Shown here piece after piece: positions 934 to 20,876 of a stretch of DNA of 64,000 bases (its first letter is position 1; each line of letters opens with the position of its first letter). This DNA is from a virus. Location: IMG/VR virus record IMGVR_UViG_3300014720_000019, positions 1-64,000 of that record; one strand, given 5' to 3'. The position numbers and the translations under genes were made by a program. The notes beneath the pieces are model-generated. The model saw only the letters and a list, made by a program, of their open reading frames with translations. It had not been told where the DNA came from and ran no database searches.

Positions 934-948
934 CTAATGAAAAGGGCC
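934..948 (-). promoter_or_regulatory. Variant copy of early-cluster element (GGCCCTTTTCATTAG)
   Basis: Plus strand ctaatgaaaagggcc. Confidence 0.45.
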
Positions 949-1175
949 AGCTACTACTTTGAATGTGTAGGCTGTGGGTTTAGTTGTTGTTATATAAAAA
1001 CAATGTAGACAATACATATTTATACTGTCTACATTATTGGCTTTTGTTAAGTTCAGGTGGTCCCACCCTAGCTTACACGTTACTACTTCAGCACATGTCT
1101 GTCCTACTGTCCTGTTGTAGGTGAGCTAATATAATCCATAACATCTGACATGACATTATGGATTATATTGGACAA

Positions 1176-1970
1176 TTATACTACAGCCTTCTTAGAGCGT
1201 GTAGTTTTAGCTGGTTGCTCAGCGCCTGCAACACTAGCACTCATAGCACTAGTAGCAGGTGCTTGTTGTGCAGTTTGATTGTTGCGCCATTGTTGAAGAC
1301 CAGCTTCTTGCTTACGGCGATGCAAAGCAGCAGACTTAGCAAGTCTAGTCTTAAATGCTTCCGCATCAAGACCCTTGTGGGGATTTTTAGCTAGAGGGTC
1401 CCAACTTGTTTCTGAGCCTATAATCAAATGGCTTTCAATATAGAATTTGAAAGCATCTTCTTTTACAGTCTCATAGCCAGCAGGAATTGCTTCTCCTCTA
1501 ACTACAACGATCTCATGTCCATCAGCATTGACTGCCAATCTACCATTAACACCATCAAGATTCATGATAGTATCAATCTCAATCATTGGATATTTATCCT
1601 CAGATTGAAAGTAAGATTGTGGAATAAAGACACTGACCTTGAAAGCACCCATGCCCTTGCTTCTGAGTCTATTCACAGTATTGACCGATTCATAAGACCA
1701 AGCTGTGAACTCTGACTCTAGCTCCTGTGGCAAAGGGGAAGCACCATTCTCAGTACTAGCCAAACGGCAGCTAGTAAGATAGAAACCCTGAGACTGAGTG
1801 AAGGGTGCATTTCGGTTGAAGAAAACATCAAAAATGTAGCCTGGTTGAGCTAGCATCTCTTTCTGTTTAGCCAACTTAGCGGCCTTCTTTGCCTCCTTAG
1901 CCTGCTCAATAGCTGACTCCTCAGCAATCTGAGAATCAAGGTTTTGCAATGCTTGAGCGATTAGTGACAT
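1176..1970 (-). CDS. Hypothetical early protein with Ala/Lys-rich termini
   Basis: 264-aa ORF, codon usage like neighbours. Confidence 0.85.
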   Translation of the reverse strand: MSLIAQALQNLDSQIAEESAIEQAKEAKKAAKLAKQKEMLAQPGYIFDVFFNRNAPFTQSQGFYLTSCRLASTENGASPLPQELESEFTAWSYESVNTVNRLRSKGMGAFKVSVFIPQSYFQSEDKYPMIEIDTIMNLDGVNGRLAVNADGHEIVVVRGEAIPAGYETVKEDAFKFYIESHLIIGSETSWDPLAKNPHKGLDAEAFKTRLAKSAALHRRKQEAGLQQWRNNQTAQQAPATSAMSASVAGAEQPAKTTRSKKAVV

Positions 1971-2040
1971 AGTATTTTTGTCCTTAATTAATAAACAACT
2001 TACACTTTTAGCAATAGGTTAGTATCACCTACATGCTATT

Positions 2041-2111
2041 AGTAATAAGTAAGTATATATTAGTTATATCTAATACATAGTTACATACTTCAGTAATAAG
2101 TAAGTATATAT
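2041..2111. repeat. 20-bp direct repeat AGTAATAAGTAAGTATATAT x2
   Basis: Copies at 2041-2060 and 2092-2111. Confidence 0.85.
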
Positions 2112-2327
2112 AAGAAAAAGAAGACAACGAAGTTGTTCAAAACTTAGGGAGGAACCTAGCATTATTGTTTACTTATATATGCTACTGGAGTTGCAATCAT
2201 ATATTAGCTATTAGTAATTATATAAGTGTTCACCTAAGCTACTTACGTTATATAACCACTAATAATTGCTAATATAAATGCAATTTTTCACTATAATGTT
2301 CAACTAAACTTGCTAGTATTAATAGCT

Positions 2328-2352
2328 AATAAAAGGGGCCAATTAAGGCCCC
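2328..2352 (-). terminator. GGGGCC/GGCCCC hairpin + T-tract after RNAP gene (copy of early-cluster element)
   Basis: aataaaaggggccaattaaggcccc directly after stop at 2361. Confidence 0.75.
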
Positions 2353-2360
2353 AGTTATTA

Positions 2361-5300
2361 CTAGATAGAAGCTAATAAGACTTTATTAGCTTGCATCATA
2401 AAGTTGATGCCATTTCTATACATCTTATTCATCCAGCCATCTTGAGGAAGAAGCTTAGTATGATATTCATGCTTAGAAACAAGCTTCAAACAAGACATAT
2501 ATTCAGTGAACTCATCACCCTCTTCAACACTGATCAACTCAAGACCAGTAGAAGGATCAAAGCCTCTACCCATATGTCTAAACATACCAATCATTGCAAT
2601 TCTGCAAAGCTTAAAGTCATCCACCTTCTCAATCTGTTCAATGGTCAACTCATTCCTGTCCAACTTGCCATAACGCATTCTATAGTAGTTAAAGTCACAG
2701 ATGATCTCCATAACTTGCTGCCAATCAGAATCCTTAGTAGGCAAGTCTAATGCATCAAGCATATATTCAATAGCATCATATAGAACAACATTCTTGTCAT
2801 CCTTCACAGCAATTCTAGGAAGAATAGAACCATCTTCAGCCTTAGCATATGCATACAACGGACCGTTAGGAACCTTATCATACATAACAAGGCTAGCAGC
2901 TCTCAACACTTCAAAGAACTCAGCAGCTTTAGCACTATAGCCAGATAGACCAAGACCTTCATAGATCAAAGTCCAAATGACTAAAATAGCCTTCTCCAAT
3001 AAGTCCATTCTAGTAAAAGACTCATCATAAGACTTAACAGCAGCCCAGCAAGTAATAGCACTTGCAATACCATAGCCAGTACCAACAGAGTACATGTAGT
3101 GATTACTAGTCTTAACATGAATACCCGCTAGCCCAACATGACCATACTCAGTGTTAAATGCAAACTCCTCAACATCCTCATGAGGCAAGAAAGAAGCATA
3201 AGCAAACCCAGCAGGTCTAATCAATTTCTTCTTAGCAGGAGACTCAATAAAGTCACTGAAGGGCAGCTTAGAACTGGCATAAACAGTCTTATAACCAGTG
3301 AGACCTACAATAGACTTGTTAGCAGCAATAGCATCAGCAATAGTCAACCCTCTAATAGAACAGTTGATCAAGCCAATACCATCACCATCAGAGTCACCGC
3401 TATTACCTTGAGCCCAAATACAAGGAAGAATACCAACATGACTTGGTTCAATCTCATTAGTAATAACAAGCTTACACATAGCTGGCATAAACATAGGAAT
3501 CCGTACAGCAGCAACAATAGTACCATTAAGCAAAGAAGGATCAAAGTACTTAACCTCATAGCCTTCTGCTTTCAAGTTCTTAGTGCTAACTTCAATGCAA
3601 TGCTCGGGCATTACAAAGTTAGTCTTGTAATCATCCTTGTTGTCAAAGTACTTAGTAACAAGATACTTCTCATTCCAAGTCTTATCAGCATTCTTAGCCA
3701 ACAACTTAGCCATACCACAGTCAGGATTGACCAAAGCTTTAGGCAACCCATCAGTATCAGGAATCAAAGACAAGTTGTACACAGTTCTAACCTTGCCGTT
3801 GACAAGACACTTAGAACTTCTAGACAACTTCTTAATAATACCCTTGCTTTGTAGACCAGCAATCAACCAGCCCCTTAAGCTATTAGAAAGCTTAAGAACA
3901 GTAGCGTTAATCTTACTGTCAATACCACTAATGCCTATGGTTCTAACGGGATCAGCAAAGAATCTAATAGCGCCTACAATCTCTTGAGAGATTTGATCAG
4001 CAGTACCACCGATAAAGGTCATGGTCTTATTAACTGTAGACCAATCAATGAGCAACTTAGAGTTGTTAGATTGACCATTAGAAGTGATCATCAGACCATC
4101 AGGAAAGATCTTTGCCATAATATTACAAACTTGTCTATCGTCCTTACCGTTGAGATTAGGAATGATAGCTTGAAATGCCTTCAATTGTTCAGTGTCTTGA
4201 GCATTAAAGACATAGGTCTCATCATAGATCTCATAACTAGCCATGTCTAATAGACCTTGCAAAGCTTGTCTAATAGGTAAGGCTTCAGAGTATAAAGCCT
4301 CTACAAGCTTAGGACTAATCAATGACATACCCGCCATCATCTCAGGAGTAAGATTAGACTCGCCAACAGACTCATCAGCAGTAGAAATCTCAAAGTTCAA
4401 TGGCATATAACCAACAAGAACTTCAATGTCTTCTTCCACAACAACAGCACCCTTGCCAAGGTCTTCAACAAGCCGCCACTTAAAGTCAAATCCATTGCCA
4501 GTATTAACATCATAACCAGCAGAAATAGCAGACTCCAGAGCAAATTCATAGTGCGTTTTAGGCATAGTAACTTGCACTTTCATCTTCTCAGTAGTCTTAT
4601 TAACCCATTCAGATACAACGTTCTTGGGATTCATCAAGTCAGACTTCTTGACCTTACCATTGTTGTAAGTAATCACCATTCTACAACCATCATTATCACC
4701 TTCAACAATAGCAGTTTTGATGCTTGCATTAGAATTAGCAAACATTACAAGTTCTGCAACATTGCCCTTTCTAGTCTCATTGTTGTAAATGATATCAGCA
4801 GGATAGCCAACCTCATTACCATTAGCATCAAACCACTTGTAGTTAGGAGAAACAACCGTAGTAGCTTTGAGGCCAGCAGTTCTGAACTTAGCAAATTGGA
4901 CTTGCTTTACAGCCTTCACCTTCAATTGAATCTTGCAGTGACTAGGGCGATAACCATTCTTGCTCATCTTAGGAGGCTTAACCTTGTAACCAGTTACAAT
5001 AAAGAACTGATTATGAGTGTTGTTAGTAAACAATGGCTTGATGTTGCCACTACCATAATCAAACACAGCAATAGTCTCGCCAGGGCCAAACACCTTGTCT
5101 TGAGGAATAGCTTCCAATACATTCTCAATGTCATTCAAGAACATAAAGAAGTTAGCATGGTCTTTAGTAATACCAGAGTTGTACTTCTCCCACACTTCAC
5201 CAGTACAATCATTGAAGTTAATCAACGTAGGAATAGACTTGTCTAAGCCATAGTAAGCAGCATACTCAGGATTCATAACAGCAACACCACTGCCACTAGA

Positions 5301-6572
5301 GATGCTACCATCAGTCAATGCAATCTTGACCATCTGACCTTCCATCATACATGCCTTACCAGTAGACATGATCTTAGTGCCAAACTTAGATTCAACCCTA
5401 GTAGAAGATAGAGTACCATCAGGATTAGTCTGACACAAATCAGAGCCTTGATATTTGAAAGACTGAGTGATTCTATTCAACATCTTGGCACCAACTTCAA
5501 TGACCTTAGTCTTCTTGTTGGCTTTAGCACCAGTATCATTGATGGTAAATTGACCCTTCTGAGTCTTAGTAGATCCATCCTTGCTCTTATAAGAAACAGT
5601 ACCACCAAAGATACCACAAGCATTAGCAGCATCATCATTGTATACAGTCTTAGAACCAACCTTATCCATAAGAATAGTGTTGCCCCATTCAACTTTAGCA
5701 GTCTTGATCTTGCCGTTGGTCATAGCATAGAAGGGAAAGCCCATGATTTGTCTGCCAGGATTATACATAAACTTTACACCCTTAGCTTGGCCCTTCTTCA
5801 AGTACTTGTTGCTATCATTGGCAACAACACCATAGTTCTGCTCTTCATCCCACAAAGCAGGAATAGAGTTGATGATACCTTCACCCTTCCATAGACCATC
5901 ATGACCAAGCTTTACAATCTCAGCACCTAGCAAGAACAGGAAGCCAGAAGTACCAACAGTTATTGCATCAATGGCAACTCGCTTAGTAGCTTGTTTAGTA
6001 GTATTACCAACCGTAAATTCACCAGTTGCAAAGTCAAGTTCCAAACCACCATAGTTAGCAGCATATGTGACTTTAGTACCTTCCAACTCGATACCATAGC
6101 TCAAATAGCTAAACATCTTAGCTAGAACATCTGGAGACAGAGCAGATAGTTTAGCAGCTACTTGAGCCATAACAAAGTTAGGAAGATCATCATGCTTAAC
6201 AGCAAGAACACCTTCCAAGTCTTCAACAGACGCATCTACAAAGTAGACAAGATCATCTTCAAGGAGATCATGATAAGACATATCTTCAATAGGAAGATAA
6301 CCATCAGATGTAGTCATGCTACCAAATCCTTTAACCACACCTGAAGCTGCCATCACACAACCACAAGCATGAAGATAAGTCAACAGAGGACTTACATTAA
6401 GCTTAGAAGGACCTGAGGGTAATACATAGTTGAGTTCTTGAGTCTCAATTGCAAGGCTAATGTTTTCAGAGGCAAGGTAGTTAGCTAGATCAATGTGAAG
6501 ATCATTGTCTTCATCAACTTGGAAGTTGAGAAGGAATGATAGAGTTGCTTCAAGGCCTTTTAGATTGGACAT
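2361..6572 (-). CDS. Single-chain two-barrel (double-psi beta-barrel) DNA-dependent RNA polymerase, probably non-virion
   Basis: 1403 aa; beta-like motifs AKFRTAGLKATT and PADIIYN, then beta'-like VRIPM and catalytic GDSDGD (3381-3395) in canonical order. Confidence 0.8.
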   Translation of the reverse strand: MSNLKGLEATLSFLLNFQVDEDNDLHIDLANYLASENISLAIETQELNYVLPSGPSKLNVSPLLTYLHACGCVMAASGVVKGFGSMTTSDGYLPIEDMSYHDLLEDDLVYFVDASVEDLEGVLAVKHDDLPNFVMAQVAAKLSALSPDVLAKMFSYLSYGIELEGTKVTYAANYGGLELDFATGEFTVGNTTKQATKRVAIDAITVGTSGFLFLLGAEIVKLGHDGLWKGEGIINSIPALWDEEQNYGVVANDSNKYLKKGQAKGVKFMYNPGRQIMGFPFYAMTNGKIKTAKVEWGNTILMDKVGSKTVYNDDAANACGIFGGTVSYKSKDGSTKTQKGQFTINDTGAKANKKTKVIEVGAKMLNRITQSFKYQGSDLCQTNPDGTLSSTRVESKFGTKIMSTGKACMMEGQMVKIALTDGSISSGSGVAVMNPEYAAYYGLDKSIPTLINFNDCTGEVWEKYNSGITKDHANFFMFLNDIENVLEAIPQDKVFGPGETIAVFDYGSGNIKPLFTNNTHNQFFIVTGYKVKPPKMSKNGYRPSHCKIQLKVKAVKQVQFAKFRTAGLKATTVVSPNYKWFDANGNEVGYPADIIYNNETRKGNVAELVMFANSNASIKTAIVEGDNDGCRMVITYNNGKVKKSDLMNPKNVVSEWVNKTTEKMKVQVTMPKTHYEFALESAISAGYDVNTGNGFDFKWRLVEDLGKGAVVVEEDIEVLVGYMPLNFEISTADESVGESNLTPEMMAGMSLISPKLVEALYSEALPIRQALQGLLDMASYEIYDETYVFNAQDTEQLKAFQAIIPNLNGKDDRQVCNIMAKIFPDGLMITSNGQSNNSKLLIDWSTVNKTMTFIGGTADQISQEIVGAIRFFADPVRTIGISGIDSKINATVLKLSNSLRGWLIAGLQSKGIIKKLSRSSKCLVNGKVRTVYNLSLIPDTDGLPKALVNPDCGMAKLLAKNADKTWNEKYLVTKYFDNKDDYKTNFVMPEHCIEVSTKNLKAEGYEVKYFDPSLLNGTIVAAVRIPMFMPAMCKLVITNEIEPSHVGILPCIWAQGNSGDSDGDGIGLINCSIRGLTIADAIAANKSIVGLTGYKTVYASSKLPFSDFIESPAKKKLIRPAGFAYASFLPHEDVEEFAFNTEYGHVGLAGIHVKTSNHYMYSVGTGYGIASAITCWAAVKSYDESFTRMDLLEKAILVIWTLIYEGLGLSGYSAKAAEFFEVLRAASLVMYDKVPNGPLYAYAKAEDGSILPRIAVKDDKNVVLYDAIEYMLDALDLPTKDSDWQQVMEIICDFNYYRMRYGKLDRNELTIEQIEKVDDFKLCRIAMIGMFRHMGRGFDPSTGLELISVEEGDEFTEYMSCLKLVSKHEYHTKLLPQDGWMNKMYRNGINFMMQANKVLLASI

Positions 6573-6582
6573 AATAGTTGAT

Positions 6583-6651
6583 AGTGAGTTTGCTTAATGT
6601 TTATTGTACTTACATAAGTACAATAAAAGGGGCTTTATTGCCCCTTTTATT
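6583..6651 (-). promoter_or_regulatory. Early-cluster element upstream of RNAP gene
   Basis: GGGGC/GCCCC hairpin with TTTTATT, overlapping TTATTGTACTTA/TAAGTACAATAA hairpin, AACTCACT at 6583-6590. Confidence 0.7.
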
Positions 6652-6660
6652 AATCAGCTA

Positions 6661-7842
6661 CTAAACCATAGAAGACCTTCTAGGAGAAGATGCTTTAGGC
6701 TCATCAACAGTAGTCTCAACAGACTGTTGTTGTACTGTTGTCTTAGCAGTGTTAACTGCACCTGCCATACCCTTAATGTTGATAACATCATTAGTGTACT
6801 CAACATCAGAATACTTGTCTTGCATATCCATTAGATATGCCTTGCAAGTTAATAAAGACCAGCCAGGGAACTGAGTAGATTTAGCAAGCTCTTGAAGTTT
6901 AGCTTCAACAAACTTGTTCCACTTGCCAGCTTCCAGTTCAGCTTCAAATGCAGTTTTGGCATTAGCAACCGCTTTATTACCAAACTGATTCTTAGCCTCG
7001 ACCTGCTTCTTCATACCATCAACAGAACCAGTGCCATTGATCTTCTTCTGTAGATTAATAACAGAAGAAACAGAAGAAGAGAAACTGCTAACTGCAATCT
7101 CATTCTTGTACTTAGGTGTGTAGAAAACACCTTCATTCCAAGTAGCTGCAACAACAACAGTTTCAAAGAAACGACCATAGACAGGTTCACCATCTTTAGG
7201 CTTTAACACCTCAACAATATCACTGCACTTAGCAGTGCCATTAGGGTTAGCGCTGAGAACAAAGAAGATGCTCAAGCTTTTAACTTGACCAGCAAGAGTC
7301 TTAGCACCCAACTGTTGAACAAAAGACTTGTCCCAATGAGCACAGTTAAACTCAAATACAATCTCACCACCAACATTATTGTCAGCAGCAATTGCTTGCC
7401 AAGCTTCAAAGTCAATATTCTCATTGACAACAACAGACTGCATAAGAGCCTTCTTAGCAGTGTCATTCAGCATTGGCAAGCGCTGTTGCAACTCTGCCAA
7501 TTCATCATCCTCACAATCTACCAACTTGTAGACAGTAGTAGTACCTTCAGTGATGTATTTAGGCTCACCATCCTTCAAAGTGTAACCCATTGGCATGAAC
7601 TTCATGAAAGCACGATCACCTTCATTAGTAGAAGTAAAAGCACCACCAATGGTCTTCAATGCAGATTTAGGACCAAATGCAACCTTCTGAGAGAAGTTTA
7701 CATTGACAGAATAGACTTTATGACCATTCAGCACAGCTTCATAGACCTCGTCCATTGAACCAAAGTTCAAAGACTTCTTAGGCTTAGAAGTAGCCTTGGT
7801 TTCAGACGCGTTATTAGAAGCAGCCTTGTTAAATAAAGACAT
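6661..7842 (-). CDS. Hypothetical protein immediately upstream of RNAP
   Basis: 393-aa ORF with highly biased codons; no motif recognised. Confidence 0.85.
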   Translation of the reverse strand: MSLFNKAASNNASETKATSKPKKSLNFGSMDEVYEAVLNGHKVYSVNVNFSQKVAFGPKSALKTIGGAFTSTNEGDRAFMKFMPMGYTLKDGEPKYITEGTTTVYKLVDCEDDELAELQQRLPMLNDTAKKALMQSVVVNENIDFEAWQAIAADNNVGGEIVFEFNCAHWDKSFVQQLGAKTLAGQVKSLSIFFVLSANPNGTAKCSDIVEVLKPKDGEPVYGRFFETVVVAATWNEGVFYTPKYKNEIAVSSFSSSVSSVINLQKKINGTGSVDGMKKQVEAKNQFGNKAVANAKTAFEAELEAGKWNKFVEAKLQELAKSTQFPGWSLLTCKAYLMDMQDKYSDVEYTNDVINIKGMAGAVNTAKTTVQQQSVETTVDEPKASSPRRSSMV

Positions 7843-7858
7843 AATAATATTCTCCGTT

Positions 7859-7922
7859 GGCCCTTTTGTTTAATAAAGTGAGTTTTGGGCCTAAATAAAA
7901 GGGCCAGACACGGCCCTTTTAT
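7859..7922 (-). promoter_or_regulatory. Early-cluster double-hairpin element
   Basis: Minus: GGCCCTTTTATTTA GGCCC AAAACTCACTTTATTAAACAAAA GGGCC ... ATG. Confidence 0.75.
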
Positions 7923-8061
7923 TATAATTGATTACTATAAACTCAGGGAGTATTTATAGTAATCAATAATGTATTAGTCTATTGAAGATGTTTAGGAATA
8001 ATAAGCTTATTCTGTTTACAGAAGGTATAAAGATCAACTTTATCACCATTTACTGTCCACT

Positions 8062-9552
8062 TTAAACCTTCTTCTTAAGTACAGGTTTAGCAGCAACCTT
8101 TAAGTACTTAAAGCCGTTAGGGTCATCTGCTATATAATTGATATAGGGATTATTAGCGCCCTTTCTACCCCCATAATTCCTCAAGAAGAAAATACCTTTA
8201 ACTTTAGGAAGTTTGCCCTCCTCTTCAATTAAAGTTAGACCTGCCTTTTTAGCAGCTTCTATATAGGGAGCATACTTAGTAAGACTCTCTGCTAACACCG
8301 CAGCTTGTCTCTCCTTTTCAGCTTTATTCCTAGCAGCAATGTCAGCCTTCTTCTTAGCTTCTGCTTCTTTAGCTTTCCTATTCTTATCAAGACAAGATTG
8401 AATCTCCTGTCTAATAAGATTAAGATTATAAGCATCATCTACTGGCATATAGAAATACACATTATCCCCATATTCATCCTTATAAGATGCCAAGTATTTA
8501 CCTTGAGTATACTTCCAACTATCAAAAGTAACTCCTAATGAGTTGGCCACAGAATGAGCCCAATTATCACATTGGTGTTCCATTCTGTATAGCCAAGGAA
8601 TATACTCTGTAGCTTTTGGGTTCTCAGAATTATATAGAATTATATCTTTATAATTCTCCTTAACCCAAGCATCAAGAGTATAAACACTAACAGCATATTT
8701 ATACTCTTGATTATACTGTTTATAGAAGTGATAATCATTAAAAACCTCTAACTTTAACTTGTTGATATAAGCTTCAGCCTTTTCAAGACTATCAACAATA
8801 AAAGTTGTATCTTTATTGATTACAGATCCATCTTTTAACTTCAAGACCTTCTTTTGAAAAGTCTTAATATAAGTTTCACTAAAGCTTGTAAAAGCGTCAG
8901 CAAAACCATCCCCAGATGAACCTCCATATTTTTCAGTAACTTTACAGGAGGAAGGAGTATCAATACATAATATTGCTCCACTAAAGTGCTCATCAACTAT
9001 AGCTTGATAATCCTTCCATACTTGAGGATACCAGTCTTTATCAAGCATTATCTCTTTAGCCTGAGCAATTAAAGCCGCTTTAGTATCAGCTTCATCTTTA
9101 ATAGCTTTCAACCTCAAAGCTTCAGCCTCTTCTTTGGCTTTAATAGCAGCTTGCTTCTCCTGCTCTTCTTTATATAGAGCATCAACAAGAGACTTATCTT
9201 CAACGTATGTCTGCCACACCAATTCAGACTCATGTTGAAGAAACCACTCTTCAAACCTTATATTCTCCTCATCTTCATCAAAGAAGAACCAACCATACTC
9301 ATCAGAGTCATAGGCTGTATGCTCTAAATGTGAAGGTATATTAGCATAGATGCTACCATCTTCTAGCTTATATAGAGTATAAGTACCCACATCAATCATT
9401 GTTTTGAGTGCTTTATTAGCATCTTTAACAATGATACTTGCTTGTTGCCATTCACCCTCAACAGTGATATAGCAAGTTACATTTTTGATATTAATCATAG
9501 AATTAATCTCCATAAACTTAGGTTCTAATATAGTAGTAATACTATCTATCAA
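8062..9552 (-). CDS. Hypothetical protein with coiled-coil segments
   Basis: 496-aa ORF; start uncertain. Confidence 0.85.
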   Translation of the reverse strand: MIDSITTILEPKFMEINSMINIKNVTCYITVEGEWQQASIIVKDANKALKTMIDVGTYTLYKLEDGSIYANIPSHLEHTAYDSDEYGWFFFDEDEENIRFEEWFLQHESELVWQTYVEDKSLVDALYKEEQEKQAAIKAKEEAEALRLKAIKDEADTKAALIAQAKEIMLDKDWYPQVWKDYQAIVDEHFSGAILCIDTPSSCKVTEKYGGSSGDGFADAFTSFSETYIKTFQKKVLKLKDGSVINKDTTFIVDSLEKAEAYINKLKLEVFNDYHFYKQYNQEYKYAVSVYTLDAWVKENYKDIILYNSENPKATEYIPWLYRMEHQCDNWAHSVANSLGVTFDSWKYTQGKYLASYKDEYGDNVYFYMPVDDAYNLNLIRQEIQSCLDKNRKAKEAEAKKKADIAARNKAEKERQAAVLAESLTKYAPYIEAAKKAGLTLIEEEGKLPKVKGIFFLRNYGGRKGANNPYINYIADDPNGFKYLKVAAKPVLKKKV

Positions 9553-9588
9553 AGTACTAATAACTATACTATTATTATCTATAATCTA

Positions 9589-10965
9589 TTATGACAATTG
9601 GCCTTCAAAGTTAGAGATCTCAGTGTTAAGATCTCTAATAGCCAACATAATGTCATGGTTAGACATGCCAGAAGCTCTCTTAGCAAGAGGAGTCTTTAGC
9701 TCTTCTTTGTACTTCTTAATAGCATCTTTAAAGCCATTAATAGTACGTCTTACTTGAGCCTTCTTATCAGCCTTTACAGACTCAATGTAAGACATAACAG
9801 CTTCTAGCTCTCTCTTAAAGACAGCATAGAACTTCCTAGTAGCTCTTAAAGCCTCTTCATACTTACCAGCGTCATAGAGCGCTTGGCAGTTATCAACTAA
9901 CTGCTTGTAAGTGTTGAAGTGGGCTTTATGATTGCTATTTAAATCACCACCTTCTTGTAAGAATGCTTCCACATCTCTTACAACTTGTTTGGCATTAGCC
10001 AAGTACTTAGCAGTTTCCTGCTTAGCCTTGTTAGCCTTTGCCCTAGCTAGATCTGCTTGCTTCTTAGCCTGCTCAGCTTTATAGAGCTCAACAGCCTTAG
10101 CAGCACGTTCTGCCTTAGCCTTTGCTTCAGCCTCTTCAGCTAGTTTAGCAGCAACAATAGCTGCTTGTTTAGCTGCTTCTGCTTCAGCCTTGGCAGTTGC
10201 CAACATAGTAGTAACGTTACTACTATCAAAGGGAAGTGCTAACTCGTCTAGCACTTCTTGTAACAAGACTGGCTTAGCAGCTTCAAAGCCACTAGCCAAG
10301 TCCCTCTCATAGACTTGAACTTCTTGGTCTGCCCAAGCATTCAAGTCTTGATTTACCTGAGCCTTAATAGACTCAAACTCATCAACAACTACACTAATAG
10401 TTGCTTTGAGTTCTGCTTTATATGACTCATACTGAGCCACATAAGCAGCATGAATCTCACTCTTTCTCTCAAAGATGAGATCAGCAACAGCCCCCTTCTG
10501 TTGCTCATAGAAGGTCTTATACATAGCCTTCTTCAAAGCATCTTTCAATGCCTTATTACTATCATCAACAACAGTATTAATGATAGGATCTACAGCCTTG
10601 TTAGGCTTAGGAGCAAACTGGTCAGCTTTGGTGCCAGTATTGCCCTTAACAACAGGCTTAGTGTTAACAGAAGGAGCGACCTTCTTTGCAGCTCTAGGCT
10701 TTTGTACAAACTTTTGGGCATTATCCCAAGTTGGTTCCACCAAGTCTGTAGGGATTAAACCTACAAAGACTAAAAGTGCAATCTTCTTAGCTTGAACAGC
10801 CTTGAAGACTGACTTAGCCTTCTTAGCTTTAGCAGACTTGTTAGCAGTCTTAGCTGCTTGTTTAGCAGCTTTAGCAAGACGTGCAGCATTGGCCTTAGCC
10901 TTTTCTGCTTCAGACATACGATTTCCAACTTGACCAGCCTTCTTAATTTTAGCCATGATACTCAA
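9589..10965 (-). CDS. Ala/Lys-rich coiled-coil protein with histone-H1-like basic N-terminus
   Basis: 458 aa; real start probably ATG at 10956 (MAKIKK). Confidence 0.85.
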   Translation of the reverse strand: MSIMAKIKKAGQVGNRMSEAEKAKANAARLAKAAKQAAKTANKSAKAKKAKSVFKAVQAKKIALLVFVGLIPTDLVEPTWDNAQKFVQKPRAAKKVAPSVNTKPVVKGNTGTKADQFAPKPNKAVDPIINTVVDDSNKALKDALKKAMYKTFYEQQKGAVADLIFERKSEIHAAYVAQYESYKAELKATISVVVDEFESIKAQVNQDLNAWADQEVQVYERDLASGFEAAKPVLLQEVLDELALPFDSSNVTTMLATAKAEAEAAKQAAIVAAKLAEEAEAKAKAERAAKAVELYKAEQAKKQADLARAKANKAKQETAKYLANAKQVVRDVEAFLQEGGDLNSNHKAHFNTYKQLVDNCQALYDAGKYEEALRATRKFYAVFKRELEAVMSYIESVKADKKAQVRRTINGFKDAIKKYKEELKTPLAKRASGMSNHDIMLAIRDLNTEISNFEGQLS

Positions 10966-10967
10966 AT

Positions 10968-11030
10968 ACCCCTGTATTATATAAGTGAGTTGTTAGGGGT
11001 CTCCTAAATAAAAGGGCCAGACAAGACCCT
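10968..11030 (-). promoter_or_regulatory. Early-cluster double-hairpin element
   Basis: Minus: GGCCCTTTTATTTAGGAG ACCCCT AACAACTCACTTATATAATAC AGGGGT. Confidence 0.75.
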
Positions 11031-11555
11031 TCTAAGTAGTTATTATTTATACTAGTTGTAACATCTCCAGCTATATTATTCAATTTGTATGTGGTAAACA
11101 ACATCTTATAAACTTAACTATAAGAATGTGCAGTCTCGCAGCACACATGGTTATTGTTATTGATGATATAAGGATCAACAGCCACAGATTCAAAGTAGGT
11201 ATAACCCACATTACCTTTAAGGAAAAAGCAATATAACCCCTCTAATTGTTCTCTTCTTGAGGATGAAGGAGAGCCACATTATTGCCCTGTCATCTACTTG
11301 TGTTGGGTCTATCAGTCTCTTAGATGCATTGCACTGATCTGTCACACCATACACACTAAAAGGGCCTGCTAGTTAATAGCAAGTAGTAGATGCAATAAGA
11401 GGTAACTCTCATTGTTGTAGTATTCAGTCTTCTTTATACTCATATATAGTCCTACTAGCTTCTACCAGTAACAAGCGGTTAACCTGTTAAAGTACTAATG
11501 TAGATAGCATCCATATATGGGTCCTGCCTATTATCATGTGCAGTTTATATCTTGT

Positions 11556-11590
11556 TAATAAAAAGGGCCATAGGATAGGCCCTTTTTATA
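11556..11590 (-). terminator. GGGCC/GGCCC hairpin with T-tracts (element copy)
   Basis: taataaaaagggccataggataggccctttttata right after stop at 11595. Confidence 0.75.
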
Positions 11591-11594
11591 TTAT

Positions 11595-12011
11595 TTAATC
11601 ATAGTCAGAGTAATCAAACTCCTCCTCTTCTTCTTCCTCAACCAAAGGAGGTGGTGAGATTTTCCATTTATTAGAGTCCTTATAAATAGACTCCATACCC
11701 AGAAGAGCCGCCCAATCTTTTCTCCTATCAGTATAGTGATCCTTTGAAAAGATATCACACTGAACAGAGAATCCAAGATTAAGTATATCTTGGATAATAC
11801 CTCTAGTTGCTCTAAAAGCAGAGAGGATAGTACTCTTGCTTGGACTGGTAGAGTCATCTTTATAATAACTCTCTTTATACTTGACACTGAGAGTCATTGT
11901 ACCCTCATTTACAATATAAACATGAAGATCTTCATGCTTATATACAGTATATACAGCTTTATAATCAAAGCTGTAAGAATTTAAAGCAGAAAGGAATTCT
12001 TGATAAGACAT
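11595..12011 (-). CDS. Hypothetical protein with acidic C-terminal tail
   Basis: 138 aa ending EEEEEEEFDYSDYD. Confidence 0.85.
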   Translation of the reverse strand: MSYQEFLSALNSYSFDYKAVYTVYKHEDLHVYIVNEGTMTLSVKYKESYYKDDSTSPSKSTILSAFRATRGIIQDILNLGFSVQCDIFSKDHYTDRRKDWAALLGMESIYKDSNKWKISPPPLVEEEEEEEFDYSDYD

Positions 12012-12023
12012 AGTTATTTACCT

Positions 12024-12062
12024 AGCACTTGTGAATTTAATTTTGTGCCAAATAAAAGGGCC
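12024..12062 (-). promoter_or_regulatory. Early-cluster element
   Basis: Minus: GGCCCTTTTATTT GGCAC AAAATTAAATTCACAA GTGCT. Confidence 0.65.
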
Positions 12063-12168
12063 TGTCATGCCATAAAATTGTTTTAAATAAATAAACATAG
12101 GGATAGGGAGCAAAGATCTCCCTTAGATGTAAGCGGGCCCCCAGCTCTACAAATGGTGATAAATCTAC

Positions 12169-12194
12169 TAAATAAAAGGGCCATTACTGACCCT
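12169..12194 (-). promoter_or_regulatory. Early-cluster element copy not followed by an ORF
   Basis: Plus taaataaaagggccattactgaccc. Confidence 0.6.
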
Positions 12195-12287
12195 ATATAT
12201 TTAAACTTCTATATCTCTTACTGGCTAGTTCATCCAGTGACTTCTATATTTTAATTGGCTCATCCATCCAATAACAAAGCAAAAGAA

Positions 12288-12764
12288 CTACTTAATCTTC
12301 TTGTTAGCAAGAAGTCTAGCAATTCTCTCCTTAGCAGCTTTTGCAGCCAGGTGAGAAGATAGTGCAGCATCAAGATGAGACTGTTTAGTAGCAGCCACTT
12401 GATCTGCAAGAAGACCTTCTGCTTCCATAGTAGAAACAAGAGACTCAATTGCTTGAGCCTTTTGCTCTACAAGATTAGCAGCATATGCTGCGTCTTGTGC
12501 CATGAAAGCAAAGGTTTGCACCTCAGCTTTAGCAGAGTTGTACTGGTGATTGACAACAGCCTCTGTTTCCAAAAGCTCCTGATACTCATCAGACAAACCA
12601 GCATCTTCTAACAACTGATCCTCTGCATCAGCACGTTGAGCCAATAAAGCAGATCTAGCTTCTTTAGCCTCTTGTTCTGCTTTAACCTTAGCCGCCTTTT
12701 GAGCAGCTTCAGTTTGAACAGATTGAGCAGAGATGGAAGCCAAGTATTCAGTAAATAGAGACAT
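12288..12764 (-). CDS. Ala-rich coiled-coil protein
   Basis: 158-aa ORF, AAGGA upstream. Confidence 0.85.
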   Translation of the reverse strand: MSLFTEYLASISAQSVQTEAAQKAAKVKAEQEAKEARSALLAQRADAEDQLLEDAGLSDEYQELLETEAVVNHQYNSAKAEVQTFAFMAQDAAYAANLVEQKAQAIESLVSTMEAEGLLADQVAATKQSHLDAALSSHLAAKAAKERIARLLANKKIK

Positions 12765-12778
12765 GATAGTTTCCTTAA

Positions 12779-12834
12779 CCTAGAACTAATTAGTGAGTTA
12801 TCTAGGATAAGTAAAAGGGCCAAATTAATGACCC
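12779..12834 (-). promoter_or_regulatory. Early-cluster double-hairpin element
   Basis: Minus: GGCCCTTTTACTTAT CCTAGA TAACTCACTAATTAGT TCTAGG. Confidence 0.75.
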
Positions 12835-12850
12835 AATTACTTAAAGAAGA

Positions 12851-13195
12851 TTAAGGATTATTCTTCTTGTTTTTTGCTTGTCTAGCAAGTCTTACAGCAG
12901 CAACAGCAGCTTTAGGATCTGCCATCATGCTGTTAAACACAGCAAAGTTCTTATCTGCTTCCTCAGCAAGATCCTCTGCATCAGCAAGATCTTCAGCAAT
13001 CTTAATTGCCATAGATGTTGCATCAAAAGCAGCAGCTTCAGAGTTAAGCTGTTTAATCAAAGCAACCTTTTTAGCTACTTCTTTCATACGCTCAACTTCT
13101 GAAGCTCTAGCCTTAGCTTCAGCCAACAATTGATCCTCATAAGAGACCTCAACTGTTGCTTTAGCTGCTGGGAACAACCAACTAAACCAAGACAT
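12851..13195 (-). CDS. Ala-rich coiled-coil protein with aromatic amphipathic N-terminus (MSWFSWLF)
   Basis: 114-aa ORF, AAGGA upstream. Confidence 0.85.
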   Translation of the reverse strand: MSWFSWLFPAAKATVEVSYEDQLLAEAKARASEVERMKEVAKKVALIKQLNSEAAAFDATSMAIKIAEDLADAEDLAEEADKNFAVFNSMMADPKAAVAAVRLARQAKNKKNNP

Positions 13196-13208
13196 AGATT
13201 ATCCTTTC

Positions 13209-13262
13209 CCTAGTACTGAATGACTTATACCTAGGATAAATAAAAGGGCCAATAAAGGCCCT
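13209..13262 (-). promoter_or_regulatory. Early-cluster double-hairpin element
   Basis: Minus: GGCCCTTTTATTTAT CCTAG GTATAAGTCATTCAGTA CTAGG. Confidence 0.7.
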
Positions 13263-13268
13263 AATTAT

Positions 13269-13592
13269 TTAGTTAATATACTTCTTGTAAGGAGGTGGAT
13301 AACCCTCATTATAAGAATTGAAGACATCATTAAGTATATTAATATACTTAATATCAACAGAGTCAAAGTCTTGCTTAACTCTAATCATAATCTCTGAACG
13401 TAGCTCCATAAGAAGCACATAGAGATCATAAACTTGAGAGCTATTACAAGTCTTTCTACAGTAGTAATCCAACTGTACATCTGCCACTGCTACAGAGTGA
13501 TAGTTAAGTTGTCTAGCAACATATCTAAGTAGCTTGCTAGAATTAGCACACCACTCAGACATCTTTCTAGAACTCATATCAATAATAGCCAT
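13269..13592 (-). CDS. Hypothetical protein
   Basis: 107-aa ORF, AAGGA upstream. Confidence 0.8.
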   Translation of the reverse strand: MAIIDMSSRKMSEWCANSSKLLRYVARQLNYHSVAVADVQLDYYCRKTCNSSQVYDLYVLLMELRSEIMIRVKQDFDSVDIKYINILNDVFNSYNEGYPPPYKKYIN

Positions 13593-13607
13593 GATATTTT
13601 CCTTTTA

Positions 13608-13666
13608 CTACAGGCATAAAGGCATCCTATAGCTAAATAAAAGGGCCCAACTTAATGAGCCCTTTA
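13608..13666 (-). promoter_or_regulatory. Early-cluster double-hairpin element
   Basis: Minus: GGGCCCTTTTATTTAG CTATAGG ATGCCTTTATG CCTGTAG. Confidence 0.7.
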
Positions 13667-13668
13667 TA

Positions 13669-14085
13669 TTAGATTAGAGAGATAGGATCACCATCTGTAT
13701 CTCCTAAATTGGAATAGGTATCTCTATACCAATCATAAAGAAGATCTTGATAGGATTCTGGGTCAATATCCTGTAAATCCTCTTCAGAGAGACCAAGATC
13801 AGGATGTCCATTGATAGATATATATCTATCAATGAATAGATCAATAGAAGACTTTTTAAACTCTACATTAGAGTAGAGTCCTGCATCTAAAACATAATCC
13901 CAAATGCAGTTAACCTCAGAAGAAGCACCTACAAAGCAATAGTCCTTGTGGATCTCAAGACCCAACATAAAGAATATATCTTCATCATAAACATATCCTT
14001 CATGATAGCTACCATCAACAACAAACATGCTGTTGTCAATAGCAAAAGAAGTATTGTAAGAAACAACAACTGTATTAGAAGACAT
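13669..14085 (-). CDS. Highly acidic hypothetical protein
   Basis: 138 aa, Asp/Glu/Tyr-rich. Confidence 0.85.
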   Translation of the reverse strand: MSSNTVVVSYNTSFAIDNSMFVVDGSYHEGYVYDEDIFFMLGLEIHKDYCFVGASSEVNCIWDYVLDAGLYSNVEFKKSSIDLFIDRYISINGHPDLGLSEEDLQDIDPESYQDLLYDWYRDTYSNLGDTDGDPISLI

Positions 14086-14096
14086 AACATTTACCT

Positions 14097-14148
14097 AGCC
14101 TGTATAAAGTAATTTAGGCCAAATAAAAGGGCCTATTACTAAGCCCCT
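14097..14148 (-). promoter_or_regulatory. Early-cluster double-hairpin element
   Basis: Minus: GGCCCTTTTATTT GGCCT AAATTACTTTATAC AGGCT. Confidence 0.7.
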
Positions 14149-14159
14149 AACAATATCAA

Positions 14160-14336
14160 TTACTTCTTCAATATATTCAAATAAAACCTTGCTTGACTAC
14201 CAGTTAAACCTTTATCATTCTTATGCTTATTAGCATATTGGTTAGTAGTCATACCTGCTCTTTTAGCCTTTGCAGACAAGGCACCAGGTCTTTTAATAGC
14301 CTTGTCAACATCCAATTTATTATTATCTTTAGCCAT
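14160..14336 (-). CDS. Small basic protein (58 aa)
   Basis: Not in ORF track: MAKDNNKLDVDKAIKRPGALSAKAKRAGMTTNQYANKHKNDKGLTGSQARFYLNILKK; flanked by element copies. Confidence 0.75.
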   Translation of the reverse strand: MAKDNNKLDVDKAIKRPGALSAKAKRAGMTTNQYANKHKNDKGLTGSQARFYLNILKK

Positions 14337-14382
14337 AGTATTACTGTATAAACATAGACAATATATACAGTAATATATGAGT

Positions 14383-14412
14383 TAATAAAAGGGCCAATTA
14401 AGACCCTTTTAT
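14383..14412 (-). terminator. GGGCC hairpin/T-tract (element copy)
   Basis: taataaaagggccaattaagacccttttat. Confidence 0.7.
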
Positions 14413-14423
14413 ATTAGAGATGA

Positions 14424-15062
14424 CTAGTCTCTTGGATAGTTTAATATCCAATCTTTGAAGAGCCGCCACTCTTCTTTATCTTTAGCAATCCAAAGGTCTA
14501 TACCTTCATCATGCTCATCATATTGTTCTAACGCACTAAAGCCAGTATCAACTAGTCTAATAGTGCATCCAACACCACTATCATGTCTTACCAACATGAT
14601 GTTATTGAATAACACATCATCAGACATGTTATTCTTCTTGACCATAGACGGCCTTCTAATGTCACCATGAGCCCAGCCACTAGCCCATAGTTCTTCTAGT
14701 TGAGACTCAGCCACATCAATAGCAGCTTCAATCTCATTCCTACTGAAGGCAGTAGGAAGACATGGATATAGTCTCTCCATAGCAATAATATATCCCACCT
14801 CCTCAATGTGGAAGTGATCCACATACTTCACTACTAAAGAATTAATCTTGTTAGCCCATTGCATAGCTAACAACTCTGCTGGGACAAAGCCATCCTTGTT
14901 AGTTTCCCAGCAAACTAACAATTCATTATCAAAGTCATCTTGTGACAGAGACTTAATAACAGTATGCTCACTAAGAGCATACACGGACCCAGTAAAGCCA
15001 CTGGACAGTAATTGAGCCTCTGGAAACTCAGAAGCAATAACAGTCTTAATAGAAATACCCAT
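14424..15062 (-). CDS. Ser/Thr protein kinase-like protein (minimal PKL fold)
   Basis: SGFTGSVY loop, VIK lysine, MERL hinge, HGDI...NIML catalytic loop, LVDTG. Confidence 0.85.
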   Translation of the reverse strand: MGISIKTVIASEFPEAQLLSSGFTGSVYALSEHTVIKSLSQDDFDNELLVCWETNKDGFVPAELLAMQWANKINSLVVKYVDHFHIEEVGYIIAMERLYPCLPTAFSRNEIEAAIDVAESQLEELWASGWAHGDIRRPSMVKKNNMSDDVLFNNIMLVRHDSGVGCTIRLVDTGFSALEQYDEHDEGIDLWIAKDKEEWRLFKDWILNYPRD

Positions 15063-15073
15063 GATATTAATAC

Positions 15074-15150
15074 TGCTGCATTGGTAATATATAGTGAGTT
15101 ATATGCAGCACATCTCCTAATAAAAAGGGCCTATTACAGCCCTTTTATTA
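15074..15150 (-). promoter_or_regulatory. Early-cluster double-hairpin element
   Basis: Minus: GGCCCTTTTTATTAGGAGATG TGCTGCAT ATAACTCACTATATATTACCA ATGCAGCA. Confidence 0.75.
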
Positions 15151-16026
15151 TTAGTTAATAAGATTATCCTCATCATCAACTAACACTAAACTATCTGGAT
15201 CTCCATACCAAATAGCAGGTTCCTCATTTTCATCAAGGAACTCAAGACAGCATTCAACTGCCTTTTGATAATAACCAGGTACAGACCTAGTTACTTCCCA
15301 CTGCTTAAGAAAGGAGGAGTATGTCAGAGGAAGATCCTCTTTATCAGAGGTAAAGATACCTCTGATATCATAGAAGGCAGTAGTACCTTCTGGTAAGAAA
15401 AGATCAGGTGGTCCCTCCCAATGTATTCTTACATCATCCAATTCACGAAAGAGATAACTGCCTAATACACTGGCAGTCCACCCATCAATTCTACCAGCAT
15501 TAAAGAGCCTATGAACTAAGCTCTCAAACTGATTTATCATCTCCTGAGAGTAGTTATACCTACCCTCGTTAGAGTGAGTGACCCTTCTAAAGAGTCTTAA
15601 CAAACTAGGTGGAATAATAGGTTCATTACCTCCCTCCCACCTAGTTCTTGTATAAGGTAGACCAGTATGAAGATATAGAATACCTTCATCTTGGTCTTCA
15701 TCTTGGGTGTCCTGACCCCAAGAACCAGTGAGATATATTTCAATCTCATTGGTCTCTTTGTATACCCTCCACTGAGTGTACTGATCAGGATGATACCCAA
15801 GTGCCAATCTTGGTTCATCCTTATACTCATCAGGAGTCTTACATCCTTCAAGCCATGTAGCTTGAGAGAACAGCTCCTGTGGCCAGTTGCACATGTGAGA
15901 ACACAATAGAGTGCCCTCCTCACCTGTCTCCTTGTCTCTTACCAAGACAAGGTTGTTAAATACATCTTCTGATGTATTAACATCAGAAGAAAGAATAACA
16001 AAGCGGCGAGTAGTAGAATTAGACAT
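15151..16026 (-). CDS. Hypothetical acidic protein, first gene of the minus-strand cluster
   Basis: 291-aa ORF. Confidence 0.85.
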   Translation of the reverse strand: MSNSTTRRFVILSSDVNTSEDVFNNLVLVRDKETGEEGTLLCSHMCNWPQELFSQATWLEGCKTPDEYKDEPRLALGYHPDQYTQWRVYKETNEIEIYLTGSWGQDTQDEDQDEGILYLHTGLPYTRTRWEGGNEPIIPPSLLRLFRRVTHSNEGRYNYSQEMINQFESLVHRLFNAGRIDGWTASVLGSYLFRELDDVRIHWEGPPDLFLPEGTTAFYDIRGIFTSDKEDLPLTYSSFLKQWEVTRSVPGYYQKAVECCLEFLDENEEPAIWYGDPDSLVLVDDEDNLIN

Positions 16027-16035
16027 GACATTAAC

Positions 16036-16085
16036 ACAGGATTATATAAAGTGAGTTTTATCCTGTTCTCCTAATAAAAAGGGCC
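16036..16085 (-). promoter_or_regulatory. Early-cluster element heading the cluster
   Basis: Minus: GGCCCTTTTTATTAGGAGA ACAGGAT AAAACTCACTTTATATA ATCCTGT; no adjacent upstream minus-strand gene to terminate. Confidence 0.75.
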
Positions 16086-16414
16086 AATAAGCATAGCCAC
16101 AACATATAATAGTGTTAATTGTAAAAACAATTTGCACACAGGGTAGGGGGGTATACACTGCTACTATATAACCCTCACAAACCCGCAACTGTACCTTCAA
16201 AAACAAAGCTTTTCACATTTAATTAAGTATTTAATAATCATCTACATGTACATTCAAAACTAAAGCTTCTTCATATAATATTTAGTATTAATATTAGTAT
16301 TAATTATTTAATATTATTGCAATCACTATTATTGTTTGATATAATAAATACCAACCAATACTATATTTATTATTACTACTAACCCTATACAATAACTAAC
16401 TACTTATATTAACT

Positions 16415-20678: not shown

Positions 20679-20876
20679 CTACTCATAAACAACCTTGCCA
20701 ATACTATAATCAAACACCCTATATTTGCCCCTTCTATTAGTCTTTGTATTATATTTATAGAAGCCTTCAACTAACTCAATAAGACCATCTATATTGTGAT
20801 TACCAATATTATCATGTGCTAACCAATGACCCTCATATAGTTCTTGCACTTTATACATAACCTTCTTGTCCTCCAA
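20679..20876 (-). CDS. Small hypothetical protein
   Basis: 65 aa, overlaps stop of giant gene. Confidence 0.6.
   Translation of the reverse strand: MEDKKVMYKVQELYEGHWLAHDNIGNHNIDGLIELVEGFYKYNTKTNRRGKYRVFDYSIGKVVYE

Follow-up and report, generated by a model that had tools for sequence, protein, structure and literature searches.

A repeated family of terminator-like hairpins in the composite intergenic cassettes of an uncultured Ma-LMM01-like phage

The closest known system to the element described here is that of the PeSL cassettes of T4-type myoviruses (Arbiol 2010, PMC2839356; Comeau 2014, PMC4122927), in which stem-loops were shown to terminate transcription and their sequence conservation was proposed to drive modular shuffling (PMC2839356, PMC4122927). 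The subject of this analysis is the GGCCCTTTTATT element, of which 16 copies lie on the minus strand of a 64,000-nucleotide (nt) stretch of viral DNA, positions 1 to 64,000 of the IMG/VR record IMGVR_UViG_3300014720_000019 (the window). The stem-loop consensus of phage nt-1, A3-4 G3-loop-C3 T3-4, is nearly the same as the window element; both kinds of cassette are concentrated in hyperplastic stretches where the small ORFan genes vary from one close relative to the next, and both provide shared homology between unrelated genes. Unlike the PeSL cassettes, those of the window showed no consistent sigma-70 -35/-10 pair (only the copy with its core at 11569 is followed by a conserved TTAACA-17-GATAAT), and behind their stem-loop comes a second hairpin, in the leader, with covarying stems and a conserved AAACTCAY loop. 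The phage is Ma-LMM01-like rather than T4-like, and recombination is deduced here from shuffled gene order.

We consider it likely, from sequence comparison, that the GGCCCTTTTATT element represents one family of hairpins, intrinsic terminators or attenuators, that makes up the first half of composite cassettes. The word itself would be the 3' arm and U-tract of short Rho-independent terminator or attenuator hairpins in the sense RNA of a cluster of minus-strand genes spanning 16026-2361. Each hairpin would end the transcript of the preceding gene or non-coding unit, with RNA 3' ends and an efficiency that we infer, and would open an intergenic cassette of 73-88 nt. By analogy with the PeSL cassettes of T4-type phages, the repeated cassettes may serve as recombination linkers that shuffle genes. 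The downstream gene could be transcribed through partial read-through or from a promoter in the leader (AAACTCAY..TATATAAT).

A scan with AATAAAAGGGCC, allowing at most one mismatch, gave 16 matches against 0.34 expected, and 16 were reached in none of 100 shuffles; 16 copies of GGCCCTTTT(ATT) fall within 937-16098. The first-pass annotation of this DNA had listed a recurring element in one orientation, and the minus strand indeed holds GGCCCTTTT or GCCCCTTTT at all 16 of the positions that it gave, with cores at 16085, 15131, 14395, 14133, 13647, 13250, 12821, 12182, 12062, 11569, 11366, 11018, 7905, 6633, 2339 and 948. The full-genome motif scan proposed with that annotation places 14 of the 15 minus-strand copies of GGCCCTTTT in the 107,115-bp (base-pair) record at 940-16077, the remaining one lying within a plus-strand gene. 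The T-run is on the coding strand of the minus-strand genes in every copy, and the few plus-strand matches are perfect palindromes at 6640, 7912 and 11578. The copies are as follows (aa, amino acids; ORF, open reading frame).

Copy 1, 16073..16098, minus strand: weak GGCUA-7nt-UGGCC, then C and UUUUUAUU; -5.8 kcal/mol, z -0.85; at the head of the cluster, 58 nt ahead of the start of the 291-aa gene.
Copy 2, 15119..15150, minus strand: AAAAGGGCU-guaaua-GGCCCUUUUU, directly past the stop of the 291-aa gene; -12.4 kcal/mol.
Copy 3, 14384..14414, minus strand: GGGUC-uuaauu-GGCCC and UUUUAUU, with a U.G wobble pair; -14.5 kcal/mol, z -4.2.
Copy 4, 14122..14148, minus strand: GGGCUUA-guaa-UAGGCCC and UUUUAUU; -12.3 kcal/mol.
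Copy 5, 13636..13665, minus strand: GGGCUCA-uuaagu-UGGGCCC and UUUUAUU; -15.4 kcal/mol.
Copy 6, 13239..13262, minus strand: AGGGCC-uuuauu-GGCCCU and UUUAUU; -12.1 kcal/mol.
Copy 7, 12810..12834, minus strand: GGGUCA-uuaauu-UGGCCC and UUUUACU; -9.7 kcal/mol.
Copy 8, 12171..12194, minus strand: GGGUCA-guaa-UGGCCC and UUUUAUU, 105 nt past the stop of the 158-aa gene; -10.4 kcal/mol.
Copy 9, 12051..12071, minus strand: GGCCCUUUUAUU, with a partner of 3 bp only; -2.9 kcal/mol, z 0.1; 50 nt ahead of the 138-aa gene and behind a conserved non-coding block.
Copy 10, 11557..11589, minus strand: perfect 12-bp palindrome AAAAAGGGCC-8nt-GGCCCUUUUU, directly past the stop of the 138-aa gene; -18 kcal/mol.
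Copy 11, 11355..11383, minus strand: a different 7-bp stem, CUUGCUA-uuaac-UAGCAGG, then CCCUUUUAG; within a conserved non-coding region.
Copy 12, 11007..11034, minus strand: GGGUC-uugucu-GGCCC and UUUUAUU; -13.8 kcal/mol; at the end of the conserved non-coding region, ~52 nt ahead of the annotated start of the 458-aa gene.
Copy 13, 7894..7923, minus strand: perfect palindrome AAUAAAAGGGCC-6nt-GGCCCUUUUAUU, 62 nt ahead of the 393-aa gene; -17.2 kcal/mol, z -5.2.
Copy 14, 6622..6651, minus strand: AAUAAAAGGGGC-6nt-GCCCCUUUUAUU, between the 393-aa and 1403-aa genes; -17.2 kcal/mol.
Copy 15, 2328..2352, minus strand: GGGGCC-uuaauu-GGCCCC and UUUUAUU, directly past the stop of the 1403-aa gene; -14.5 kcal/mol.
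Copy 16, 937..948, minus strand: GGCCCUUUUCAU, without a hairpin partner; -0.1 kcal/mol; a 19-codon ORF (GAGGTG) starts 27 nt downstream at 918.

On the coding strand, 12 of the 16 copies read (A-rich)-GGGYC-loop of 4-8 nt-GGCCC-UUUUAUU. Their stems have 5-7 bp of GC character and reach up to 12 bp with an A/U extension, and the fold energies run from -9.7 to -18 kcal/mol, which bears out the earlier remark that many copies look like terminators. Among 200 shuffles, at most 4 reach the stability of the native fold for 11 of these 12 hairpins, and 11 do so for copy 6. TTTT is present in all 16 copies, usually in the form UUUUAUUU. Thirteen copies, weak copy 1 among them, have a stem of 5-7 bp that ends at the GGCCC arm, and in these the TTTT begins 0-1 nt past the stem; in copy 11 the gap is 3 nt. 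Ten of the 16 copies start 18-29 nt past a stop codon, and the next start codon is 47-68 nt downstream in 11. Three sequence hallmarks of an intrinsic terminator are found: a GC stem-loop in the sense RNA, an adjacent U-rich tract and a co-oriented location at the 3' end of genes. As in canonical intrinsic terminators, the GC stem has basal G/C pairs, the loop measures 4-8 nt, the U-tract follows at once and the whole sits just past a stop codon; as in bidirectional ones, there is an upstream A-tract, which makes five window copies perfect palindromes. Compared with canonical terminators, the window stems lie at the lower end of the length range (5-7 bp), and a single sequence family recurs 16 times in 16 kb. 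By itself, the element would be an ordinary terminator family.

The strand on which the hairpin is maintained can be read from the mispairs within its stems. Transition-type mispairs were scored, with neither kind favoured, in 44 hairpins drawn from seven related loci as well as the window. The internal non-Watson-Crick pairs on the sense strand were G.T (G.U in RNA) in 24 cases and A.C in one (p ~1.5e-6, an upper bound on the significance because the hairpin copies are not evolutionarily independent); the window hairpins alone gave six and none. A G.U pair is tolerated in RNA, and its mirror image on the opposite strand is an A.C mismatch. The bias therefore shows that the hairpin is kept for the sense transcript, and not for the template strand or as a double-stranded palindrome. 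A palindromic site for a dimeric protein was ruled out by the asymmetric arms (GGGTC versus GGCCC). The same pairing rules account for the uneven conservation of the two arms: near the loop, a single change in GGGCC/GGCCC leaves pairing intact only if it turns a C of the 5' arm into T, and hence that arm varies (GGGTC, GGGCT) and the 3' arm stays constant. A G-to-A change in the 3' arm (GACCC) is found only alongside a compensating T in the 5' arm (L140 at 4476; L141 at 5564 and 7674). The constancy of the 3' arm that the first-pass annotation had pointed out is real, but as an argument for a promoter it is explained by RNA pairing.

The strand-specific variation of the stems also argues against a promoter of the N4 type, in which a template-strand DNA hairpin would be read by an injected virion RNA polymerase (here the 3923-aa protein), with four template A residues as the ruler to the start site. 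The resemblance that brings this model to mind is that N4 virion RNA polymerase promoters, the early promoters of that phage, consist, on the coding strand, of a short GC hairpin, then TTTT, then the start site (PMC4496689), and the window does encode a giant, possibly virion-borne protein at 20851-32622. In N4, however, the functional hairpin is that of the template strand; its 3-nt loop is conserved, there are three copies of it per genome and its polymerase is T7-like. In the window, the template strand would carry an A.C mismatch in the 5-bp stem of 6 of 11 hairpins, the loops vary from 4 to 8 nt with no conserved 3-nt loop, and there are 16 copies past stop codons instead of a few at the heads of operons. 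The T7-like polymerase domain PF00940 was not found in this record (estimated to be ~59% complete), the records of four relatives or Ma-LMM01, although this absence is weak evidence as control genomes were likewise silent. We regard an N4-type promoter as extremely improbable.

The single viral record whose first 64 kb make up the window has 34% GC and includes genes for a tail sheath and a portal protein. Its major capsid protein shares 43% identity with the counterpart in Ma-LMM01, and the source phage is an uncultured relative of this Microcystis phage. All genes between 16026 and 203 are on the minus strand. A sister phage, G002, has a capsid protein 90% identical to that of the window phage; only 6 of the 14 cluster genes have homologues in its cluster, at 26-53% identity, and the 291-aa and 212-aa genes are at another location with their order swapped. 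The gene cluster is fast-evolving and hyperplastic. Once homologous genes and two conserved non-coding blocks are set aside, the short matches left between the two clusters are the terminators, up to 97% identical over 34 nt and flanked by otherwise unrelated genes. G002 has nine copies of GGCCCTTTT in the same orientation and cassette layout as the window.

Further afield, the loci of distant homologues of the 1403-aa protein have arrays with other stems, for example GGGCTAG/CTAGCCC (L146, L147 and L151), TAAGGGCC-ttcg-GGCCCTTA and GGGAG/CTCCC. In the marine relative L141/L154, in which the large protein is ~25% identical, twelve near-identical UUCG-tetraloop terminators, TAAGGGCC-ttcg-GGCCCTTA-TTTTGTA, stand between consecutive small genes at 2880-7700. 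Ma-LMM01 (L004 21228-29615, ~43.2-51.6 kb of the record) has five hairpins followed by TTTTTCYTTYTAGTG with a conserved tail, CCCTTTTTCYTTYTAGTG, located upstream of gp066 (two copies), gp065, gp064 and gp063. On NC_008562 these five elements lie at ~43.8-51.3 kb. All that is common to the relatives is a GC stem ending in CCC and then a T-run, co-oriented with the genes; the tails differ, being TTTTATTTAG in the window, TTATTTTGTA in L141 and TTTTTCYTTYTAGTG in Ma-LMM01. The exact hairpin AGGGCC-N4-6-GGCCCTTTTATT is also found in more than 119 other viral contigs, mostly once in each, which fits a generic solution to termination. With the hairpin kept in the sense RNA, a 3' arm that changes when compensated, relatives that conserve only the GC stem, CCC and T-run, and this wide distribution, the promoter reading for the GGCCCTTTTATT element itself is unsupported. 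What stands of the proposal made in the first-pass annotation, a promoter or dual terminator/promoter for a phage-encoded polymerase, is that the cluster is cut into nearly gene-sized units and that a phage RNA polymerase is plausible from motifs and fold.

Several observations nevertheless weigh against a family of hairpins that does nothing but terminate. A weak or missing partner arm, reported at the outset for some copies, is found in four: 16073 (copy 1), 12051 (copy 9), 937 (copy 16, without a fold) and 11355 (copy 11, with its alternative 7-bp stem). Those at 12051 and 16073 are hairpin-poor in G002 too, and GGCCCTTTT(T)ATT is nonetheless exact; a word kept in weak copies points to selection acting directly on the sequence, or to concerted evolution of the copies. 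Three hairpin-poor copies each precede an ORF at a promoter-like distance (27, 50 and 58 nt). The leader hairpins, some of them with G.U pairs, start within 10 nt of the T-run, and the next message must therefore have its 5' end no further downstream than the T-run. In L141 the next start codon follows the element after only 8-44 nt, which, if the terminators are efficient, leaves no room for a separate promoter. Lastly, the ~6 other intergenic terminator-like hairpins elsewhere in the genome all have different, longer stems, which sets the cluster copies apart as a sequence family of their own.

Most of these points could be accommodated by a dual role, in which the RNA hairpin ends the upstream gene while the double-stranded GGCCC and T-run (with TAG or AGGAG) form the upstream part of a promoter for a phage two-barrel or host polymerase that starts in or just past the T-run. 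We think this unlikely, and equally so in its most compact version, where one signal does two jobs as RNA stop and as promoter half for a phage single-chain two-barrel RNA polymerase. It would be in keeping with 20 of 20 nt of GCCCTTTTTATTAGGAGAAC being identical in L147 when the downstream proteins are just 53% identical, with a candidate phage RNA polymerase gene in the cluster, with the conserved sigma-70-like TTAACA-17-GATAAT directly after copy 10, its -35 abutting the T-run, and with the known PeSL classes in which the stem-loop overlaps a promoter (PMC2839356). Against it, the wider family conserves nothing past CCC and the T-run, the 3' arm changes once compensated, and a consensus scan with manual alignment found no consistent -35/-10 pair downstream of the copies. 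Recombination among copies can also maintain identity within a genome: an intact word among 16 recombining copies can be explained by concerted evolution, without any promoter function. The orthologous cassette of copy 1 in L147 has a full hairpin, GGGCTAG-atat-CTAGCCC, and by this sequence comparison copy 1 is a decayed version of the full hairpin cassette that precedes the orthologous gene there. The hairpin-poor copies and the short leader and start distances fit leaky termination with read-through, or a promoter overlapping the element, and not an N4-type promoter. Two start signals tied to the T-run were tried and dropped. For a sigma-70 promoter anchored on it, -35-like hexamers occur at its end but a -10 at 16-18 nt follows only copy 10; a TAG after the T-run is present in the window and Ma-LMM01 and absent from L141, L146 and L151.

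A candidate for the polymerase that might read such a signal is encoded within the cluster itself.

1403-aa protein, 2361..6572, minus strand: homologue of Ma-LMM01 gp064, candidate single-chain two-barrel RNA polymerase.

The N.GD.DGD and R.P.. motifs of this protein are invariant across 20 homologues. A model of residues 850-1350 has a pLDDT (predicted local distance difference test score) of 69.5, and its 50 best fold matches in the PDB are all largest subunits of RNA polymerases, with weak E values (~3e-3) and probabilities of up to 1.0. From the motifs and the model, a phage RNA polymerase is plausible. A PDB sequence search with the protein family and a viral-contig search with the protein as a single query gave no match, and nowhere in the literature searched is gp064 named an RNA polymerase. 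In the Thermus phage P23-45 (Chaban 2024, PMC10770324), which has two-barrel RNA polymerases, small pre-early genes each have an AT-rich promoter, and seven terminator sites share a conserved 26-nt motif that is not described as a hairpin and U-tract; polymerase activity has been shown for P23-45 and is presumed for the window phage. A T7-like promoter was also considered, as AACTCACTATA downstream of the element resembles positions -10..-1 of T7 promoters, but its spacing to the start codon varies from 10 to 34 nt and PF00940 was not found in the record of the window, in those of four relatives or in Ma-LMM01. In Ma-LMM01 the sequence ACTCACTAT lies ~25 nt upstream of gp063, with which the experimentally early block of that phage begins; it is only a lead because the 8-mer is not enriched genome-wide. 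The expression table for Ma-LMM01, which does not have end-mapping resolution, lists gp063-gp054 as early and gp064-gp067 as class B5.

The copies of the element map the boundaries of ~12 gene-sized units and of conserved, putative non-coding RNAs in a fast-evolving region that encodes a candidate RNA polymerase. PeSL-like, probably portable cassettes thus exist beyond T4-type phages, and the sites bear on how transcription is organized in the Ma-LMM01 group, so far thought to be wholly dependent on the host polymerase. Were the dual role true, each small gene would be an autonomous, portable transcription unit.

The short intergenic regions of the cluster have a fixed order: stop codon, hairpin, U-tract, leader hairpin, ribosome-binding site and start codon.

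Leader hairpins (second half of the cassette), 6583..16057, minus strand: covarying stems of 5-11 bp with an AT-rich loop of 11-23 nt.

The sequence AACTCACT is in the leader loop at 16050, 15093, 12792, 10984 and 7877 and just downstream of the hairpin at 6583. The same five loops, and the position just downstream of the hairpin at 6583, have the contiguous motif AAACTCAY-N2-4-TATATAAT, the intergenic occurrences of which are confined to this cluster; it recurs in G002, L144 and L147. Judged by sequence, this leader motif is a more likely promoter candidate than the terminator-like element. Leader stems covary between orthologous cassettes (TGCTGCAT/ATGCAGCA versus AACTGCAT/ATGCAGTT). The cassettes with the AAACTCAY..TATATAAT loop (16027-16072, 15063-15118, 10966-11006; L147 120-180) have no ribosome-binding site beside the start codon and an invariant AGGAG just upstream of the leader hairpin. 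As an alternative to a promoter role, the leader hairpin might bring this AGGAG to the start codon and so form a split ribosome-binding site; a ribosome-binding site brought close by a hairpin is known for T4 genes 38 and 25. A known RNA family or ribozyme was dropped as an explanation: an Rfam search (E <=1) returned only noise, no tRNA was found and the complement of the loop motif is absent from the sense strand.

The two hairpins of each cassette, with a single-stranded AU-rich linker between them, allow a further reading in which the first hairpin is not a terminator. A polymerase insensitive to hairpins would make a long read-through RNA, and the hairpins would protect the 3' ends left after cleavage of the AU-rich linker, in the manner of T7 early mRNAs processed by RNase III or of the 3' inverted repeats in chloroplast mRNAs. 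The stems are short (5-6 bp), the U-tracts are interrupted and the polymerase-like gene lies behind ~10 such elements, all of which would suit this. On the other hand, the invariant T-run at the base of the stem and the adjacent GGG/CCC pairs are what termination needs and a stability hairpin does not, and no processing enzyme or cleavage site was identified; we find protection of 3' ends unlikely, and somewhat less credible than the dual role.

Conserved non-coding region, 10966..11594, minus strand: ~560 nt, conserved in G002 (77% identity) and in L148.

This is the best-conserved DNA of the whole cluster, and it is taken to be non-coding because its indels relative to the other phages are not multiples of three. 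Copies 10, 11 and 12 (cores at 11569, 11366 and 11018) bound or sit within the ~560 nt conserved in the three phages, and most likely therefore end non-coding RNAs. The stem of copy 11 shows compensatory changes across the window, G002 and L148. The sigma-70-like TTAACA-17-GATAAT, conserved, is at 11558-11530, straight after copy 10. By these comparisons the region is a probable source of one or two small RNAs.

A second conserved non-coding block, at 12003-12116 on the minus strand, is 76% identical to G002 and contains TTTGCTCCCTATCCCTAT; it is situated between the terminator copies at 12182 and 12062. Upstream of the cluster, a divergent control region (16086-16414) separates it from the gene for a helix-turn-helix protein (16415-17584, plus strand). 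This region has two direct repeats of ~25 nt (GAARAGCTTTRGTTTTGAAKGTACA) and a C-rich block (CCCCCCTACCCTGTGTGCA) that is found in G002 too. There are also two unannotated small ORFs on the minus strand: one of 28 codons at 7963-8049, upstream of the copy at 7905, and one of 19 codons at 859-918, the ORF downstream of the hairpin-less copy at 948, for which GAGGTG is a strong ribosome-binding site.

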